Numbered from the stretch's first letter, positions 2,332 through 29,269 are shown. The stretch: DNA of 32,037 bases from Chloroflexota bacterium (GCA_005879775.1 VBJX01000023.1:1-32037), one strand, 5' to 3'. Notes: generated from the letters alone by a model not told the origin. Numbers and translations: made by a program.

Positions 2332-2724
2332 TCAGCGGTGGTTGTAGAGCTCCACCTGCCAGCGCCACTCGGTCCCGTCGGGAGCGTTCCACCAGGCGAT
2401 CAGGGTGCCCACCTCGCCACCGGGCAGGATCACCAGCGAGCCAAGGTCATCGGCGGTCGGCCAGCGGTCCTCGCGCACGATGCCACCGTCGGCGATCGAG
2501 AGGCGGGTCATCGGCAGGTAGGGACCCTCCCGCGTGGTCGATCCGCGCGCGACGAGCCTCTCGTCGAAGGTTCGCACCGTGACCTCAAGCTTCTTGGGGG
2601 CGCTGTGCACCCAGAGGAGATCGGTCGGGTCCAGGCGTCCGCGGGCGAAAGGCAGCCCGGTCGCGCCGCCACCCGGATACCACAGCTCCCAGGTCTGGAG
2701 CGGCTTGGGGTCGATCATCGGCAT
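2332..2724 (-). CDS. Hypothetical protein (130 aa)
   Basis: Only the C-terminal 130 codons of the 710-aa track ORF 2332..4464 look like real protein (MPMIDPKPLQTWELWYPGGGATGLPFARGRL...GTLIAWWNAPDGTEWRWQVELYNHR). The rest is antisense to the amidase gene. The start could be 2724 or 2718. Confidence 0.6.
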   Translation of the reverse strand: MPMIDPKPLQTWELWYPGGGATGLPFARGRLDPTDLLWVHSAPKKLEVTVRTFDERLVARGSTTREGPYLPMTRLSIADGGIVREDRWPTADDLGSLVILPGGEVGTLIAWWNAPDGTEWRWQVELYNHR

Positions 2725-2790
2725 CGGGTGGCCATGGTAGACGAACCCATCGCCATAGGTCCGGGCGGCGGTAGCCCGTACGGACCGCTG

Positions 2791-2809
2791 CCTCCGCGGG
2801 CCGCGGAGG
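2791..2809. promoter_or_regulatory. 19-bp GC-rich perfect palindrome in a divergent intergenic region
   Basis: CCTCCGCGG-G-CCGCGGAGG lies between the divergent hypothetical genes starting at 2724 (-) and 2860 (+). Confidence 0.3.
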
Positions 2810-2859
2810 GCTACCTTCACAGGGCTGATGACCTGGCACCAAAGGACAGAAGGGGACCG

Positions 2860-3228
2860 ATGACGCAGACAGTCGGAACGCGCGAATGGCGTCGGTACGG
2901 GTTCGGTGGACCGCCGGAGCCATGGGAGCACGGCGCCCAGCGCGACCTCGATCGGCTGGCGACCTCCTACTACCTCGAGATCATCGAGCTGCGCGGCGCG
3001 GCCCTGGCTGCGCATCTGGATGAGGAGCTGTGGCTGCGGATCGAGGAGCTGAGCACCACGGCCACCCGTCACAAGCACGAGATCGACTACACGCTGCGTC
3101 ACTGGGCGACCCCCGCCGAGCGCGCGCGACTCACCGATCGGCTCGGCTCCCTGATGCGAATCAGCCGCCGACTTCACTCCGTCGTGCACGGCTCGGATGA
3201 TCCGGAGCCGCAGCCCGAAGCCGCCTGA
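2860..3228 (+). CDS. Hypothetical helical protein (122 aa)
   Basis: Internal ATG 2860 of ORF 2338..3228 is preceded by GAAGGGGA. The sequence MTQTVGTREWRRYGFGG...LEIIELRGAALAAHLDEELWLRIEEL has protein-like composition. I recognised no family. Confidence 0.6.
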   Translation: MTQTVGTREWRRYGFGGPPEPWEHGAQRDLDRLATSYYLEIIELRGAALAAHLDEELWLRIEELSTTATRHKHEIDYTLRHWATPAERARLTDRLGSLMRISRRLHSVVHGSDDPEPQPEAA

Positions 3229-23022: not shown

Positions 23023-23652
23023 TCAGGAGCCGCCGGCGGAGCCGGACGCGGGCTGACGGTCGGCGGCGGGCGCGGCCTCGCGCTCCTTGCCACCGAAGAT
23101 GCTCCCCTGGCCGGACTGCGCCGACTGCGATCCCTTGCCCGGGGCAGGGGTGGCAGGCTCGGCGGCCGGTGTCGCCGGAGCAGCGGAAGTTGCGCGACCC
23201 TCGGGGGTCATGATCACCCCGCCCTCGAAGTGGGCGCCCTCACGCACCACGAGGACCTGGGCCTTGACGCTCCCCTTGACGCGTCCGGTGGAGCCGATCT
23301 CGAAGCGGCCACCACAGTTCACGTCGCCCTCATAGTCGCCATTGATGATCACGTTGGCGGCGGTGATGGCGCTGCGCACCTTGGCCTGCGGACTGATGAT
23401 CAGCGTCCCGGAGCACTCGATCTCGCCGTTCGCCTCGCCCTCGATCCGCAGGTCGCGATCGCTGACGTACTTGCCATTGAACCGGGCGTGCGGATCGATC
23501 ACGCTCTCGTTGCCAGGATCGCCGTGGCGATAGTCCATCGAGTTCTGGGCCATCTCGACCTCATTGGGAAAGCTGTCCGGATATAGGCTGCCGACGACGT
23601 CCTCACGCAGCTCGGAGTCTGGCTTGCTGTCTCGCTTCGTACCGAAGACCAC
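23023..23652 (-). CDS. Bactofilin (polymer-forming cytoskeletal protein) with a low-complexity Ala/Pro/Gly tail
   Basis: Beta-helical repeat pattern LRIEGEANGEIECSGTLIISPQAKVRSAITAANVIINGDYEGDVNCGGRFEIGSTGRVKGSVKAQVLVVREGAHFEGGV. GTG 23652 has AGGAAGGAG 7 nt upstream and gives the N-terminus MVFGTKRD. The alternative ATG 23553 has only GAGG. Confidence 0.8.
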   Translation of the reverse strand: MVFGTKRDSKPDSELREDVVGSLYPDSFPNEVEMAQNSMDYRHGDPGNESVIDPHARFNGKYVSDRDLRIEGEANGEIECSGTLIISPQAKVRSAITAANVIINGDYEGDVNCGGRFEIGSTGRVKGSVKAQVLVVREGAHFEGGVIMTPEGRATSAAPATPAAEPATPAPGKGSQSAQSGQGSIFGGKEREAAPAADRQPASGSAGGS

Positions 23653-23788
23653 TGCTGGGCTCCTTCCTCTGCGTCGCGGGGCAGAAACGCCGGCACATGC
23701 GCGACGAATCGGTGCAGGGACGGATAGCCTAGCAGCACAGCACAATTCGAGGTAGTGGGCACCAGGGGCCGCGTAGAATCGGTCGCCG

Positions 23789-24565
23789 ATGGAGCTCGCC
23801 GCGCGCTACCCGAACCTGCATGTCAGCCGCCACCCGCTGGTGCTGCACAAGCTCAGCCTGCTGCGCGATCGGACCACCGAGCCCAAGAAGTTCCGAGAGC
23901 TGGTGCGCGAGCTCTCGTGGCTGCTCGGCTACGAGGCGATGGCCGATCTGACCACCCAGCCGCTGGACGTCGAGACGCCGCTGGAAACGACTGCCGGAGC
24001 GGAGCTGGAGCCCAAGGTGGGCCTCGTGCCGGTCCTGCGCGCGGGGCTGGGCATGGTGGACGCCATGCTCGAGCTGATGCCATCGGCCGAGGTGTGGCAC
24101 ATCGGGCTCTACCGCGACGAGCGCACCCTCAAGCCGGTCGAGTACTACAACAAGCTGCCCGATGCCGCCACGGTGCAGGTCTGCCTCATCCTGGACCCGA
24201 TGCTGGCAACGGGCGGATCGAGCGCGGCGACCGTCGACATCCTCAAGCAGTGGGGCGCTGCCCGCATCAAGCAGGTGAGCCTGATCGCGGCGCCGGAAGG
24301 AGTGGCCACCCTCTCCTCCGCGCATCCCGACGTGGACATCCACGTCGGCGCCGTCGACCGGGCGCTGAACGAGCGCGGCTACATCGTTCCAGGGCTGGGT
24401 GACGCGGGGGACCGCCAGTTCGGCACATTCGCCGGGCCCGCCTCGGAACCCGGACATGCGATCGGCGATGAGGCGGCCGAGGTCGTGCGACGCCTGCAGC
24501 GCAGCCTGGCCGGAGAAGATCGTGGACAAAGCAGTGTCCCGAAGGAACCGCCGCCGGACCGTTGA
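23789..24565 (+). CDS. upp: Uracil phosphoribosyltransferase with a roughly 45-aa C-terminal extension
   Basis: [13 protein letters not shown]..., the PRPP loop [11 protein letters not shown], and [16 protein letters not shown] (the normal family C-terminus) are present. 45 more codons then precede the stop. Confidence 0.9.
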
Positions 24566-24591
24566 TGCAATCTCGGGTGCCGTTGGCTGCC

Positions 24592-24610
24592 CCTTCGGGA
24601 CGACCGAAGG
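24592..24610. terminator. Perfect 7-bp stem / 5-nt loop hairpin between convergent upp and the sORF
   Basis: CCTTCGG-GACGA-CCGAAGG lies 27 nt after the upp stop. It has no U-tract. Confidence 0.35.
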
Positions 24611-24674
24611 ATAGGCGCCGGGCCTCGGGGAGGGCAAGCCCACTTATCCCCGAAGTTCCAAGAAAGCCGGAGAG

Positions 24675-24710
24675 TTGTCCACAGCTCATCCCCGGATCGG
24701 CTGCGGACAA
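24675..24710 (-). terminator. Hairpin downstream of the sORF (11-bp stem, 14-nt loop)
   Basis: Minus-strand RNA: UUGUCCGCAGC-N14-GCUGUGGACAA, containing one G-U wobble. The same position is an A-C mismatch in a plus-strand transcript. The hairpin starts 24 nt after the sORF stop, and a U-rich stretch (CUUUCUU) begins 9 nt after the stem. Confidence 0.4.
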
Positions 24711-24733
24711 TAGTGGCAGTGGGCCTCAGGCAG

Positions 24734-24784
24734 CTAGCAGCAGTCGCCGGGGCAGCAGTCGGGATCGCAACACCCTCGTGGCAT
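24734..24784 (-). CDS. Candidate 16-aa polycysteine peptide MPRGCCDPDCCPGDCC (metallothionein-like sORF)
   Basis: The minus strand reads AAGGAGGTGA (24800-24791), a 6-nt spacer, then ATG CCA CGA GGG TGT TGC GAT CCC GAC TGC TGC CCC GGC GAC TGC TGC TAG. A consensus TATAAT and a 22-bp palindrome lie just upstream and a hairpin lies downstream. The ORF is below the size cutoff of the supplied track. Confidence 0.55.
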   Translation of the reverse strand: MPRGCCDPDCCPGDCC

Positions 24785-24816
24785 TCGGTCTCACCTCCTT
24801 TCGTTTGGCAACACCG

Positions 24817-24840
24817 ATTATATTGACATACGTCAATATA
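24817..24840 (-). promoter_or_regulatory. Promoter/operator of the polycysteine sORF: consensus -10 TATAAT overlapped by a 22-bp palindrome
   Basis: On the minus strand, TATAAT is the complement of 24822-24817. The palindrome TATATTGAC-ATAC-GTCAATATA spans 24819-24840, with 9-bp perfect arms and 10 of 11 symmetric pairs. The 30 nt at 24811-24840 contain only 9 G/C. Confidence 0.5.
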
Positions 24841-24853
24841 GACACCCGACGAT

Positions 24854-24882
24854 AGAGCGGTCGATCAGAGATTAGCCGCTCT
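24854..24882 (-). terminator. Hairpin just downstream of the GT-C gene stop
   Basis: AGAGCGG-N15-CCGCTCT (7-bp stem) lies 24 nt after the stop at 24906 and upstream of the sORF promoter. It has a large loop and no U-tract. Confidence 0.3.
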
Positions 24883-24905
24883 GGCTACCCCGCTTCTAAT
24901 CGCCT

Positions 24906-26462
24906 TCAGCACGGCCCAGCAGGGGCAGTAGCGCGCTCGTTCGGCGGCAGGTGTGTCGGATTCTCCAGGTCATAAACCCACATGCGCGGCGTCTGACAGA
25001 GCAACGGAGCGCGTGGGTCCAGGAAGGCCCGGACCGTGTCCACCCCGCGAAGGTCCGCGGTCACGATGAAGTAGTGGATGCCATCTCGCATCGCCGCCGC
25101 GAGGCGTTGGTCATCCTCACCGTCGATGCCTTGGAGATGAGTGAATTCCCTGTCGCCTGACGTCGGCCATGGCGATACCAGCAGCCCGGAGTAGTACATC
25201 AACGGGAAGCTTTCGTTGTAGCTGTAACCGATCACCGGGTTGCCGCGCCCGAGCCTTTCCCCGATCGCTGCAAAGGTCGGAGCGTCTACCTCGTACGCGT
25301 CACTCGCAGGGAATACGTCGACGGGAACAGTCAGGTACGCGACAGGGCCGGTTGCGAGGAGCGCGGCAAACATCAGCGACGCGATGGCTGGATGCGAGGA
25401 GCGAAACGTCCGAACCGTGGCGCCTGCGAACGCCGCCAGCCCGATCGCGGCCAGGGCGAGAAGTGGCACCTGGTAGTAATCGTGGGTCATGGTGTGCCAC
25501 GTGAAAGCGAGTGACGTCACCAGATATCCCGCGAGGAACCCCGCGACCAGCCGCCAGAGCCTCGGGGTGAGCCAAATACCCACGGCGGCGAGCGGTAAGG
25601 CGGTCCAGCCGACGACGTGGACCACGTTGCGCGCCCAGCCAAGATAGTAGTCCGTCGTCAGCAGCAAGCTGGGGATGACCTTCGCGTGGACCTGCCCCTG
25701 CAGAAACAGGGTCCCGTAGGCAACGGCCGGCAGGGCGACCAGACCGATGAGCGCTGCAAGGCGCCAGCGGCGCTGGCGATCTGACCATATCGATCCGCGT
25801 TCACTGGCCGTGGCGACGACAACGCCGATGATCGGGAGAATGAGGGGTCCAGGCTTGACCAGGGCGGCCAGTCCTGCGAGGACGGCCATGACCAAGAGGT
25901 TCCGGCGGCTCGCGAGGACATCGTTGCGCACGCCGAACCAGGCGGTCGCCACGAGACCCAGCATGGCCAAGCTGTCTGACTGGAAGCTCCGGCTGACGGC
26001 GATTGCGAACGGCGCAAAAAGGAAGTACGCAAGGCCGACGGAAGCTTCCAGCGATCCGACAAGGCGACGGCAAACGTCCCAGAGCAGCGCGCCAGCCATC
26101 AGCCAGGCCAGCGAGGTGAAGATGGCCGACGTCCAGGGCCGCTCAACCCCGCCCGGGAAATACGTGAGCGCGGTCAGCGTCTGCAGGATCGGCGGTTCAA
26201 TAAAGCGTCCTGATCCGGCCTGCAACCAGACCCGCTGCCACTGAGCCAGTGCATCAGGGTGCAGCGCGAACCAGATGGTTCGGGCCGCGTTCGCGGAGTC
26301 ATACTCAAGGGTGGGTCGAAAGGTGTGGGTCCAATCGTGCAGGACGGACATCCGCAGCACCACCCACACGACGGACAGGCCAAGAGCGGCAAGCGCGCCG
26401 ATCGCAGGCGCCGAATTGATCCGGGCCGCGCGGCCGATTTCTTGGCCCCGCGTTATCCGCAT
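24906..26462 (-). CDS. Polytopic membrane protein, GT-C fold glycosyltransferase-like (family 39/83, ArnT/PMT_2-like), with a C-terminal soluble domain
   Basis: Internal ATG 26462 of ORF 24906..26765 has GGGAG 9 nt upstream. There are about 11-12 hydrophobic helices, an acidic first loop (TLEYDSANAA) and a roughly 120-aa hydrophilic C-terminal domain. The family call rests on architecture and composition rather than a strong motif. Confidence 0.65.
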   Translation of the reverse strand: MRITRGQEIGRAARINSAPAIGALAALGLSVVWVVLRMSVLHDWTHTFRPTLEYDSANAARTIWFALHPDALAQWQRVWLQAGSGRFIEPPILQTLTALTYFPGGVERPWTSAIFTSLAWLMAGALLWDVCRRLVGSLEASVGLAYFLFAPFAIAVSRSFQSDSLAMLGLVATAWFGVRNDVLASRRNLLVMAVLAGLAALVKPGPLILPIIGVVVATASERGSIWSDRQRRWRLAALIGLVALPAVAYGTLFLQGQVHAKVIPSLLLTTDYYLGWARNVVHVVGWTALPLAAVGIWLTPRLWRLVAGFLAGYLVTSLAFTWHTMTHDYYQVPLLALAAIGLAAFAGATVRTFRSSHPAIASLMFAALLATGPVAYLTVPVDVFPASDAYEVDAPTFAAIGERLGRGNPVIGYSYNESFPLMYYSGLLVSPWPTSGDREFTHLQGIDGEDDQRLAAAMRDGIHYFIVTADLRGVDTVRAFLDPRAPLLCQTPRMWVYDLENPTHLPPNERATAPAGPC

Positions 26463-26562
26463 GCTGCCCCACTCCCGCCTTCGAGATCGTGCGCGCCGAC
26501 GGCGCCAGTGTAGGGTTTCAGACGTCGGAGGCGCGCAGTGCGGAAAGCTGCCGGGCTCATCA

Positions 26563-26586
26563 TCTATAGAGACGGGTAGATATAGA
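26563..26586. promoter_or_regulatory. Imperfect inverted repeat in the arsR / GT-C divergent promoter region, related to the sORF palindrome
   Basis: TCTATAGAGAC-GG-GTAGATATAGA. The core half-sites TATAGAGAC and TATATCTAC (reverse complement of the right arm) each match TATATTGAC at 7 of 9 positions. The octamer ATATAGAC occurs at both loci (24836-24843 and 26580-26587). Confidence 0.4.
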
Positions 26587-26596
26587 CCTCGGCCGA

Positions 26597-26602
26597 TATA
26601 CT
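26597..26602 (+). promoter_or_regulatory. Candidate -10 (TATACT) for a leaderless arsR transcript
   Basis: TATACT is followed by 7 nt (CAGAGCG) and then ATG 26610. There is no purine-rich SD. Confidence 0.4.
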
Positions 26603-26609
26603 CAGAGCG

Positions 26610-26903
26610 ATGAAATCGAACGATCCCGACATCCTCCTCCTCTCCGCCCTGGCCGACCCCACCCGTCTGTCCATCGTGAGGCAGCTCGGCACCCAGCCCG
26701 GCGCCGTCTGCGCCTGCGACTTCACCGAGTGCTGCGCCGTCACCCAGCCGACGATCTCGCATCACCTGAAGGTCCTGCGTGACGCGGGGGTCCTCACCAG
26801 CCGGCGAGAGGGGACGAACATCTACTACGAGTTCGCGCCCGGCTTCGTCGAACGCTTCCGGGGGCTGGGGGCGAGCCTCACGGGGTTGGTCCAGCTGGCC
26901 TAG
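26610..26903 (+). CDS. ArsR/SmtB family metal(loid)-sensing transcriptional repressor
   Basis: 97 aa. It has LSALADPTRLSIVRQL, a CxCD sensing motif (AVCACDFTECC) and the recognition helix TQPTISHHLKVLRDAGVL. TATACT lies 7 nt upstream of the ATG and there is no SD, so the gene is a leaderless candidate. Confidence 0.9.
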   Translation: MKSNDPDILLLSALADPTRLSIVRQLGTQPGAVCACDFTECCAVTQPTISHHLKVLRDAGVLTSRREGTNIYYEFAPGFVERFRGLGASLTGLVQLA

Positions 26904-26975
26904 GGACTATCGGCCGGGGCGAGGGCTACCCCGCGCTGCGGTACACTCGGATGCGGCTCATCCTTGGGAGGCTCG

Positions 26976-27961
26976 ATGCCCGCGTCGCATGTCACCGTGG
27001 CCGTCACCGGCGCCGCCGGACAGATCGGCTACGCGCTCGTCTTTCGGATCGCGTCCGGCCAGATGTTCGGCCCCGAGACGACCGTTGACCTGCAGCTCCT
27101 GGAGCTTGAAGTCGCGCTTCCGTCCCTCGAGGGGGTCGCCATGGAGCTCGACGACTGCGCCTTCCCGCTGCTGCGGCAGGTGGTGCGTACCGCGAGCCTC
27201 GACGAGGCGTTCGACGGGATCAACTGGGCGCTCCTGGTCGGCGCCGTGCCGCGCAAGGCAGGCATGGAGCGCAAGGATCTGCTGACCGTGAACGGAGGCA
27301 TCTTCACCGAGCAGGGACAGGCCATCGAGCGCAACGGGGCCGATGACGTCCACGTGCTCGTGGTCGGCAACCCGTGCAACACGAACTGCCTGATCGCGGG
27401 CGCCAATGCGCCCCGAGTCCCCCACGAGCGGTGGTTCGCGATGACCATGCTCGACGAGAATCGGGGCAAGGCGCTGCTGGCTCACCGGTCCGGGACGGAG
27501 GTCGCGGGGGTCGGCGACCTGGCGATCTGGGGCAACCACTCGAGCACCCAGTTCCCCGACTTCTACCACGCCACCATCGGTGGGCGACCGGCCCCCGAAG
27601 TGATCGGCGACGAGGCATGGCTGCAGGGCGAGTTCATCACCACCGTTCAGCAGCGGGGCGCTGCCGTGATCGCTGCCCGCGGACAGTCGAGCGCGGCGAG
27701 CGCGGCCAATGCGGTGATCGACACGGTGCGGGAGATCACCCAGCCCAGCGGTCGGGTCTTCAGCGCGGCTATCCCGGCGCCGGCCAGCGGTGGCTACGGA
27801 ATCCCCGAGGGCCTGGTCTTCGGCTACCCGCTGCGTGCTACAGCCCCTGGCCAGGTCGAGATCGTGCCCGGCATCGACCACGGGGAGTGGGCACAGGAGC
27901 GGGTCGATGCAACCTGCAATGAGCTGCTCGAGGAGCGCGAGGCCGTGAAGGAGCTGATCTG

Positions 27962-27962
<1 letters not shown>
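26976..27962 (+). CDS. mdh: Malate dehydrogenase (NAD-dependent, LDH-unlike type)
   Basis: [27 protein letters not shown]...[13 protein letters not shown]...[14 protein letters not shown] 26976 has GGGAGG 5 nt upstream, whereas the TTG 26964 start in the track lies inside that SD. Confidence 0.93.

Positions 27963-29269
<1,307 letters not shown>

Follow-up and report, generated by a model that had tools for sequence, protein, structure and literature searches.

The minus strand of the window, a stretch of 32,037 nucleotides from a Chloroflexota bacterium, carries a very short open reading frame (sORF) rich in paired cysteines. Comparison with related loci indicates that this sORF is a real gene and belongs to an unannotated family of peptides of 11-26 aa, composed almost entirely of vicinal Cys pairs and Asp/Glu/Pro/Gly turns and ending in CC-COOH. 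Sequence comparison establishes that the gene exists, that it is conserved at the coding level, that it is linked to arsR and further ars genes, and that an operator is shared. We propose, with a probability of roughly 0.6, that the sORF encodes an ArsR-repressed, arsenite-inducible thiol peptide, which would act as an As(III) buffer or chaperone. The sORF, its translation signals and the neighbouring upp gene are the following:

24734..24784, minus strand: polycysteine sORF of 16 codons plus TAG, encoding MPRGCCDPDCCPGDCC (direct read and frame translation)
24784-24782 and 24736-24734, minus strand: ATG start of the sORF and, after 15 further codons, its TAG stop
24800-24791 (24791..24800), minus strand: Shine-Dalgarno (SD) sequence AAGGAGGTGA, separated from the ATG by a spacer of 6 nt (GACCGA)
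23789-24565, plus strand: upp (UPRTase), convergent on the sORF

The minus strand reads aAAGGAGGTGAgaccgaATG CCA CGA GGG TGT TGC GAT CCC GAC TGC TGC CCC GGC GAC TGC TGC TAG, and MPRGCCDPDCCPGDCC therefore contains three vicinal Cys pairs, with CC directly before the stop. An earlier reading made from the DNA alone (the sequence-only reading) had described the SD, the 6-nt spacer, the ATG with its 15 codons and the TAG, as well as the use of TGC in five of the six Cys codons, and direct inspection gives the same result on each point. It had also placed the sORF correctly within a gap of 340 bp between the stops of upp (24565) and of a GT-C gene (24906), 1.8 kb from an ArsR/SmtB gene (26610-26903); no minus-strand gene follows in the window, and the product stands alone. 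An N-terminal extension is ruled out because an in-frame TGA lies within the SD (GGTGAG). The 10-mer SD occurs only once across the window, and among window sORFs of 8-80 aa the polycysteine sORF is the only one with at least four Cys and at least 20% Cys. An antisense ORF on the plus strand (24562-24855, 97 aa) was considered and rejected, as it has no Pfam match and its context is not conserved. Rfam gave no match in or near the region, either at the gathering threshold or at E<=5.

The DNA of the sORF had been described as about 2.5 copies of a 15-nt unit, which was taken to suggest repeat expansion. Repetition of GCAGCAGTCG at 24737 and 24752 is visible by eye, but Tandem Repeats Finder reported no array, even at a score of 30, and an expansion is at most weakly favoured. 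The apparent 15-nt repeat most plausibly reflects the periodicity of the CC-x3 codons, rather than an independent repeat array.

Relatives of the sORF were collected with a strict pattern (GGAGG, 4-10 nt, ATG, 1-6 codons, CC-x3-CC-x3-CC and a stop) in which the spacer residues were left free. This pattern gave one distinct noise match in the viral collection and at least 120 matches in metagenome contigs, 49 of them in frame among the matches listed. Approximately 40 in-frame peptides of 14-19 aa were found among these listed matches, on contigs of 64-74% G+C that come mostly from soil metagenomes; examples are MAPDECCPAECCPGDCC, MTDPCCPPDCCPPDCC, MKVDPCCPPDCCPPGCC, MATSCCDEACCPEGCC and MTGCCEDGCCGGPCC. 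Although the pattern did not constrain the spacers, P, D, E, G and A make up nearly all of their residues. One match (L223) is 99% identical to the window and represents the same population. The strictness of the pattern matters: a loose version, CC-x2-[DE]-CC-x2-[DE]-CC, drew matches in over 120 viral contigs, with off-frame tandem repeats behind nearly every one, and the addition of an SD and an ATG still gave noise, specificity being reached only once a stop was required directly after the last CC. CC-x3-CC periodicity by itself carries little meaning.

The matches listed include about 35 distinct DNA variants of the sORF, all of which keep the reading frame, the Cys pairs and the terminal CC-stop. 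Their Cys codons vary synonymously (188 TGC and 25 TGT), spacers have two, three or four residues and N-termini one to six residues, and the frame is kept every time. Between the window and the related locus L273, which have an overall nucleotide identity of 84%, the sORF shows two synonymous differences and a third codon that is wholly replaced (Gly to Pro). As judged from these variants, the pattern of substitutions and indels is the signature of selection acting on the peptide rather than on the DNA or RNA. A pattern search of this kind had been suggested by the sequence-only reading; the frame and the Cys pairs, which it wanted to see kept where codons change synonymously, are indeed kept in the roughly 35 variants.

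Because the upstream divergent gene encodes an ArsR protein in many of the pattern matches, a search was also run from the side of the repressor. ArsR homologues were chosen without regard to the sORF, and their flanks were then scanned for any short Cys-rich ORF. The two queries, the ArsR of the window and that of L212 (Actinomycetota-type), listed 4,524 and 7,697 homologues, and 12 distinct loci were checked, with the following results (ArsR identity is to the window ArsR unless otherwise given):

L273, ArsR 90%: sORF MPRPCCDPDCCPGDCC
L274-276, ArsR 84%: sORF MVRICCDPDCCDDCC
L277-279, ArsR 75%: sORF MNHPCDDPDCCKDGDCC
L280, ArsR 74%: sORF MTNPCCDPDCCKDGDCC
L282/283 (Limnocylindria MAGs), ArsR 73%: sORF MLRRACGCDCDCGDCGPDCCPTGPCC
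L285/286, ArsR 72%: sORF MRFDDCCGDACDCVPGCC
L293/L294 (Actinomycetota MAGs), ArsR 85% / 80% to L212 ArsR: sORF MDPDCCPPGCC
L295, ArsR 68% to L212 ArsR: sORF MQDPISPPDCCPPDCC
L281, L284, L287 (arsR-arsM operons), ArsR 69-72%: no sORF

A Cys-pair sORF divergent from arsR is thus present in nine of the 12 distinct loci, from Chloroflexota and Actinomycetota, so that the synteny with arsR which had been put forward for checking holds in loci chosen by ArsR. The scan demanded no SD, and these sORFs are nevertheless preceded by strong ones, GGAGGTGA or GGAGATGA. In the closest relatives (L273, L274, L277 and L280) the sORF lies 72-80 nt from the start of arsR. Since the window-type and L212-type ArsR proteins share only 37% identity, the association covers two ArsR subfamilies as well as two phyla. 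The three loci without a sORF indicate that it is an accessory gene. Taken with the coding conservation, the linkage to arsR supports what the sequence-only reading had suspected, namely a real, stand-alone polycysteine peptide gene tied to ArsR.

The region between the sORF and arsR contains a candidate regulatory site, which is listed here with the promoter-like elements and the repressor gene of the window:

24819..24840: perfect 9-4-9 AT-rich palindrome TATATTGAC-N4-GTCAATATA, predicted ArsR operator (inverted-repeat search)
24817..24822, minus strand: TATAAT, -10-like hexamer of the sORF overlapping the edge of the palindrome (direct read), a putative promoter element
26597..26602, plus strand: TATACT, -10-like hexamer of arsR, 7 nt before the ATG, a putative promoter element
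26610..26903, plus strand: arsR, encoding a 97-aa ArsR/SmtB repressor with the motif C-A-C-D-x4-CC (NCBIfam HTH_metalloreg, 1.5e-24)

The palindrome lies 35 nt upstream of the sORF ATG and is unique in the window, where none is expected by chance. The sequence-only reading had made no mention of it. The same palindrome or close variants lie between sORF and arsR in L273, L274, L277 and L280, followed in these loci by GAC-N7-GATATACT-N7-9-ATG of arsR; GATATACT is conserved in the window, L273, L277 and L280. Loci with arsR only, lacking the sORF, have TATATTGAC-N4-ATCGATATACT upstream of arsR. In loci of the Actinomycetota type, ATATTGACA-N3-GTCGATA / ATATCGAC-N3-CATCGATA is present once or twice and overlies good -35 and -10 elements. 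A degenerate motif was found within 160 nt upstream in 17 of the 44 non-identical sORF upstream regions, whereas 234 kb of other sequence from these loci contain it twice. From this distribution it is reasonable to regard the palindrome as the ArsR operator, to which the repressor would bind. The promoter of the sORF can be placed in two ways. L273 has TATACT where the window has TATAAT, and the -35 element of this proposed promoter is weak; a consensus promoter scan favours TCGACC-18-TATATT at 24864-24835 instead, which also overlaps the palindrome. In silico, the sORF shows two features of an ars cluster or ArsR regulon: it is physically linked to arsR and ars genes, and its predicted promoter is overlapped by an inverted-repeat operator.

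Homologues of the window ArsR at 66-90% identity carry JGI names of arsenite-responsive repressors, and the predicted arsenic specificity of both ArsR subtypes is assigned by motif, source annotation and neighbours. In the window, the sORF and arsR are not directly adjacent, and the comparison with L273 accounts for the distance between them:

24844..26579: insertion of 1,736 bp relative to L273, carrying the GT-C gene and parting the sORF and operator from arsR
about 24906-26462, minus strand: CDS of the GT-C/PMT_2 gene (PMT_2 domain)
24836-24843 (left) and 26580-26587 (right): 8-bp direct repeat ATATAGAC flanking the insertion

By blastn, positions 1-715 of L273 correspond to 24109-24843 of the window and positions 708-1406 to 26580-27277, L273 708-715 aligning with both copies of ATATAGAC. 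The insertion is also present in L223. These alignments indicate that it has split an ancestral divergent sORF-arsR pair. Synteny of the sORF with the GT-C gene, proposed for checking along with that of arsR, is not conserved: the gene is a recent insertion in comparison with L273, and its closest homologues are only 49-53% identical and have no sORF beside them. After the insertion the sORF retains the intact palindrome, and arsR keeps its -10 with only a degenerate half-operator upstream. Regulation in the window may thus differ from that in the relatives, the full operator being gone from the arsR side. More distant relatives (L277, L280, L282, L155 and L263) have arsC between upp and the sORF, which is absent in the window and in L273. 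A tblastn search across the 32 kb found no homologue of ArsC, ArsM, ACR3, aquaporin or ArsI, and arsR plus sORF in the window is, on gene content, a minimal module.

Regarding the wider neighbourhood, Pfam was run on 98 deduplicated ORFs located within 1.8 kb of the pattern-scan sORFs. Among the matches listed there are 13 ArsR HTH_5 domains, 11 LMWPc (ArsC-type arsenate reductase), five MIP (aquaglyceroporin) and two ArsM-like methyltransferases, and at least one ars gene is visible in 31 of the 38 loci, despite the short contigs. The arrangement varies: the sORF may diverge from arsR, follow arsC (the MTGCCEDGCCGGPCC group) or follow arsR (L240). In L189 the sORF, MTACCDCDCCGGDCC, is translationally coupled to a tail-less arsM by an ATGA overlap. 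The tails in question are found in L281, L284, L285 and L287, where ArsM ends in CC-x4-CC-stop; the tail sequences in related loci are ...AGCCGGGGCC*, ...AGCCGGSGCC*, ...AGCCGSTGGCC* and ...GCGCGCGSGGCC*. ArsM tail and free sORF are, by the likeness of their sequences, in a fusion/fission relationship, which ties the motif to arsenite handling. With arsR adjoining in relatives, and arsC, arsM and MIP enriched nearby, the predicted link to arsenic is stronger than the sequence-only reading could see.

The sORF is commonly the last or the sole gene of its unit, and the gene that follows is in most cases convergent; the genes found downstream on the same strand are a mixed set (AI-2E transporter, esterase, MFS, GlmM and others). 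Because the next gene is usually convergent and the downstream genes share no identity, the sORF is interpreted as an end product and not as a leader for one given gene. No arsA was seen among the neighbours examined, and P-type ATPase, CDF or mer genes do not recur among them. RiPP maturation enzymes (radical SAM, cyclodehydratase, MNIO, protease/transporter) are absent from the top neighbour Pfam families and from the scanned flanking genes, and the sORF thus lacks the adjacent maturation enzymes of a RiPP precursor. All members of the family come from uncultured organisms. Of cultured actinobacteria, five plasmid-borne ars loci were examined and contain no sORF, and a blastn search of two sORF regions against PLSDB matched arsC only, with no sORF.

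A conserved sequence follows the gene on its 3' side:

24536..24700, minus strand: conserved structured element directly 3' of the sORF, kept in L273, L277, L280, L155 and L263

The minus strand of this element folds better than the plus strand (-42 versus -33 kcal/mol), and in L277 and L280 the element forms a long hairpin followed by a T-run. It has no Rfam match and is only a candidate part of the sORF unit. A hairpin at 24675-24710 was also considered as a terminator of the sORF and was rejected, as only one of its arms is conserved among the relatives.

The mechanism that we propose would operate as follows. When arsenite is absent, an ArsR dimer would occupy the palindrome TATATTGAC-N4-GTCAATATA, overlapping the -10 of the sORF promoter. 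As(III), or MAs(III)/Sb(III), would bind to the cysteine site of ArsR, which would then leave the DNA, and the sORF would be transcribed and efficiently translated from its near-perfect SD. In As(III)-sensing ArsR proteins three Cys coordinate the metalloid, and two suffice for MAs(III) (PMC11868830). The thiolates of the peptide would in turn bind As(III), in line with the metal(loid) binding that the sequence-only reading had considered: its six Cys could form two three-sulfur sites of the type CC-x(3-4)-C, as employed by ArsD and AfArsR, or, alternatively, CC-x3-CC-x3-CC could offer three dithiol sites for organoarsenicals. Sites for As(III) in ArsD and AfArsR are characterised by vicinal Cys pairs (PMC12607644, PMC11868830); ArsD has such pairs at Cys12-13, 112-113 and 119-120, and its transfer site consists of Cys12, 13 and 18 (PMC12607644). 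The peptide would thereby serve as a cytosolic arsenite buffer, or as a chaperone handing arsenite to ArsM or to efflux. Direct exchange of As(III) between the peptide and ArsR or ArsM is a further possibility, which could tune the induction threshold or feed methylation. Inside the cell, so short a peptide (16 aa) carrying six free thiols may become oxidised or lack stability.

Four other explanations have been weighed against this one. That the sORF is a functionless chance product of a short GC-rich repeat is effectively refuted by the comparative data. CC-x3-CC does arise easily off-frame in 15-nt tandem repeats, as in the viral contigs found with the loose pattern, but chance would not account for conservation in two phyla with synonymous variation, in-frame indels, constant strong SDs, an arsR partner and a shared operator; moreover, none of 300 dinucleotide-preserving shuffles of the window yielded an ATG-initiated sORF of 8-30 aa with three CC pairs. 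Binding of another soft metal (Cd, Pb, Hg, Cu(I), Zn or Bi) by a metallothionein-like peptide, with the ArsR/SmtB partner sensing that metal, has more in its favour and is still unlikely. ArsR/SmtB proteins with N-terminal Cys and CxC also include sensors of Cd, Pb and Zn, the matches to specific NCBIfam subfamilies, CmtR among them, are all sub-threshold, and Cys-rich peptides bind many thiophilic metals (general chemistry). The enriched neighbours, however, are specific for arsenic (LMWPc arsenate reductase, ArsM-type methyltransferase and MIP), genes for a P-type ATPase, CDF or mer are not recurrent, and vicinal Cys pairs are typical of the As(III) sites of ArsD and AfArsR (PMC12607644, PMC11868830).

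The remaining two explanations keep the arsenic context and give the peptide another role. A regulatory leader peptide, in which ribosomes pausing at the Cys codons (through scarce Cys-tRNA or thiols, or an As(III)-bound nascent chain) attenuate downstream ars genes, would fit the minority of loci where arsC follows the sORF after 34-119 nt on the same strand (L192, L199 and L171) or where MIP follows it (L254). GC-rich hairpins after many sORFs and the precedent of polycysteine attenuators (bioRxiv 10.1101/834739) point the same way. In the window and at most loci, however, the next gene is convergent or unrelated (upp, or an opposite-strand arsC 7-20 nt away), the same-strand downstream genes have no common identity, and the sORFs are led by an SD rather than being leaderless. 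A pure pausing device would need neither non-Cys positions restricted to D/E/P/G nor an invariant CC-stop, and the same motif is found as a protein tail of ArsM; we regard a leader as improbable. An equally small likelihood is given to a thiol/redox helper, which would shuttle reducing equivalents to ArsC/ArsM or shield their catalytic cysteines. Such a helper is suggested by the frequent adjacency of arsC or arsM, by the coupling to arsM in L189 and by the equivalent ArsM tails, but neither arsC nor arsM lies near arsR and the sORF in the window and in L273, vicinal disulfides are poor redox couples and under strain, and 16 aa are too short for a thioredoxin-like fold. An ArsR-controlled peptide that buffers or delivers As(III) remains the preferred interpretation.

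Genes of this kind are invisible to standard gene callers because they are shorter than the cut-offs of these programs. Searches of Pfam and NCBIfam (both at E<=10) and of PDB with family variants of 20-26 aa gave no match, and the full-text literature covered, to which most subscription journals do not belong, contained no description of such a peptide that we could find. Arsenic resistance is among the best-studied detoxification systems. Should the peptide prove to bind arsenite, arsenic resistance would gain a new component of very small size, and because the family is common in soil metagenomes, a role in soil arsenic retention and methylation is possible. The fission between ArsM tail and free peptide suggests a mechanism of As(III) hand-off. 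A natural, minimal sequence predicted to bind As(III), together with a matched repressor and operator, could be used in biosensors and bioremediation, and the sORF lends itself to a clean test of what ultra-short bacterial ORFs do; it is relevant both to arsenic biology and to the small-ORF field. The chances are about even that no smaller gene-encoded metal(loid)-binding peptides are known, that the family is a ribosomally made "phytochelatin" against arsenite, and that it forms with ArsR a self-contained two-gene sensor-sponge module, widespread in uncultured soil Actinomycetota and Chloroflexota, with an ars gene that every annotation pipeline has missed.

Among known systems, smtB-smtA of Synechococcus has the same layout: the genes of an ArsR/SmtB repressor and of a bacterial metallothionein diverge, and the short intergenic region between them contains an inverted-repeat operator. 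SmtA has about 56 aa, folds around a Zn4Cys9His2 cluster and binds Zn and Cd. The likeness to the sORF lies in the divergent ArsR-family repressor, the small Cys-rich product and the operator between them, a logic of sensor plus sponge; the divergent repressor and a shared operator can be recognised from the relatives, the pair being split in the window by the GT-C insertion. The difference lies in the product, since the sORF peptides have 11-26 aa, Cys pairs with acidic/Pro/Gly turns, no His and an arsenic gene context, and the 16 aa of the window peptide do not match the roughly 50-60 aa and the Cys/His cluster profile of SmtA/BmtA. No bacterial metallothionein known to us comes closer to the sORF product in size than a factor of three to four. 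MymT binds Cu(I), has about 53 aa and is controlled by a copper-sensing repressor (in part from PMC11672702); it is distinct both in length and in the type of regulator, which for the sORF is ArsR in an ars context. ArsD, encoded in ars operons (PMC12607644), shares the vicinal Cys pairs, whose metalloid binding is predicted for the sORF, and its C-terminal CC-x5-CC resembles the CC-x3-CC of the sORF. However, ArsD folds into a protein of about 120 aa and docks on ArsA; the sORF product, with 16 aa, is too short for that fold, no arsA was seen among its neighbours, and it does not qualify as an ArsD. The ArsM tails are tethered to an enzyme, whereas the window peptide is free-standing, with no arsM within 32 kb.

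The mycobacterial polycysteine sORFs are leaderless, precede cysteine-metabolism operons and act in cis via ribosome pausing (Canestrari et al., bioRxiv 10.1101/834739). Like the family described here, they are unannotated, very short and Cys-dense, and occur in high-GC Gram-positive lineages. The present sORFs differ from them in being SD-led, linked to ArsR, mostly terminal or monocistronic, and patterned as CC-x3-CC rather than as Cys runs; neither a leaderless start nor a position as first cistron of a cysteine-metabolism operon is seen. Phytochelatins are short, acidic, Cys-rich chelators of As(III) that are made enzymatically and have gamma-Glu linkages. With these and with synthetic (Glu-Cys)n peptides the sORF product has in common that it is short, acidic and Cys-rich, and it differs from them in being, as predicted, ribosomally made and gene-regulated. 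The tetracysteine tag CCPGCC, unlike the natural sORF product, is an engineered sequence; it binds biarsenicals, and CCPGDCC of the window and CCPPGCC of its relatives come close to it. Taken together, the comparison suggests a system whose kind is known, in which an ArsR/SmtB repressor controls a Cys-rich sink for its ligand; it would be new in that the sink is far smaller, is linked to arsenic and had not been annotated before.

The genes around the arsenic-related module of the window belong to a backbone, bactofilin - upp - [ars module] - mdh - citrate synthase - MBL hydrolase, which is shared between positions 23023-29269 and the related loci L277 and L282. Among the Chloroflexota contigs, the interval between upp (the UPRTase gene) and mdh is variable, and arsC, the short ORF for the Cys-pair peptide (sORF), the repressor gene arsR, NUDIX and GT-C may each be present or absent. 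This variation inside a syntenic backbone marks the interval as a hot spot, small in extent, at which genes turn over. The features concerned are as follows.

24429-24565: C-terminal extension of upp, 45 aa past the canonical end of the UPRTase domain
24536-24700, minus strand: non-coding element of ~165 nt, also in L273, L277, L280, L155 and L263
24836-24843 and 26580-26587: copies of an 8-bp direct repeat, ATATAGAC, on both sides of the GT-C segment
24844-26579: inserted segment of 1,736 bp, defined by comparison with L273, carrying a GT-C/PMT_2 glycosyltransferase gene
26595-26612: region containing the -10-like TATACT of arsR
L282:2731-2919 and L283:2614-2787, minus strand: small ORF of 57-62 aa, beginning MSLNHFLLADATHADRLRTADEARARR...
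L285, about 2716-3000: similar small ORF
L281:1310-2128, L284:3307-4119, L285:3316-4125 and L287:3305-4120: ArsM with a CC-x4-CC-stop tail, adjoining window-type arsR

The GT-C segment is absent from L273, the closest relative, and its insertion in the window separates the full predicted operator from the arsR promoter. The direct repeat around it looks like a target-site duplication; the termini form only a weak inverted repeat (ACCCGaCgaTAGAG vs ACCCGtCtcTATAGA), and no transposase is found within the segment. Since TATACT ends only 7 nt ahead of the arsR ATG, a distance common to the window and its relatives, the arrangement points to an arsR mRNA with little or no leader. In Limnocylindria-type loci, the 57-62-aa ORF is placed between arsR and the Cys-rich sORF; no Pfam match is on record for it.

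On the upp side, the 45-aa extension is probably real, as it is kept at the protein level in L273. The ~165-nt element lies 3' of upp in all relatives, with either arsC or the sORF next to it, and shows strong conservation: it includes the invariant blocks CTGTGGACAA and TCGGGGATAAG together with a 65-nt hairpin, which in L277 and L280 is followed by a T-run. Folding is better on the minus strand, where there are G-U pairs and compensatory change at five pairs. Nothing in Rfam matches the element, which could be a terminator or else an sRNA of unknown type.

Paired cysteines also occur outside free peptides, CC-x4-CC-stop being the C-terminal end of the ArsM methyltransferases beside window-type ArsR genes. 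The ArsM of a Mycobacterium avium plasmid has no such tail. The ArsM of L189 is likewise tail-less, and its stop overlaps the start of a free CC-peptide sORF (ATGA), an overlap by which the two are predicted to be translationally coupled.
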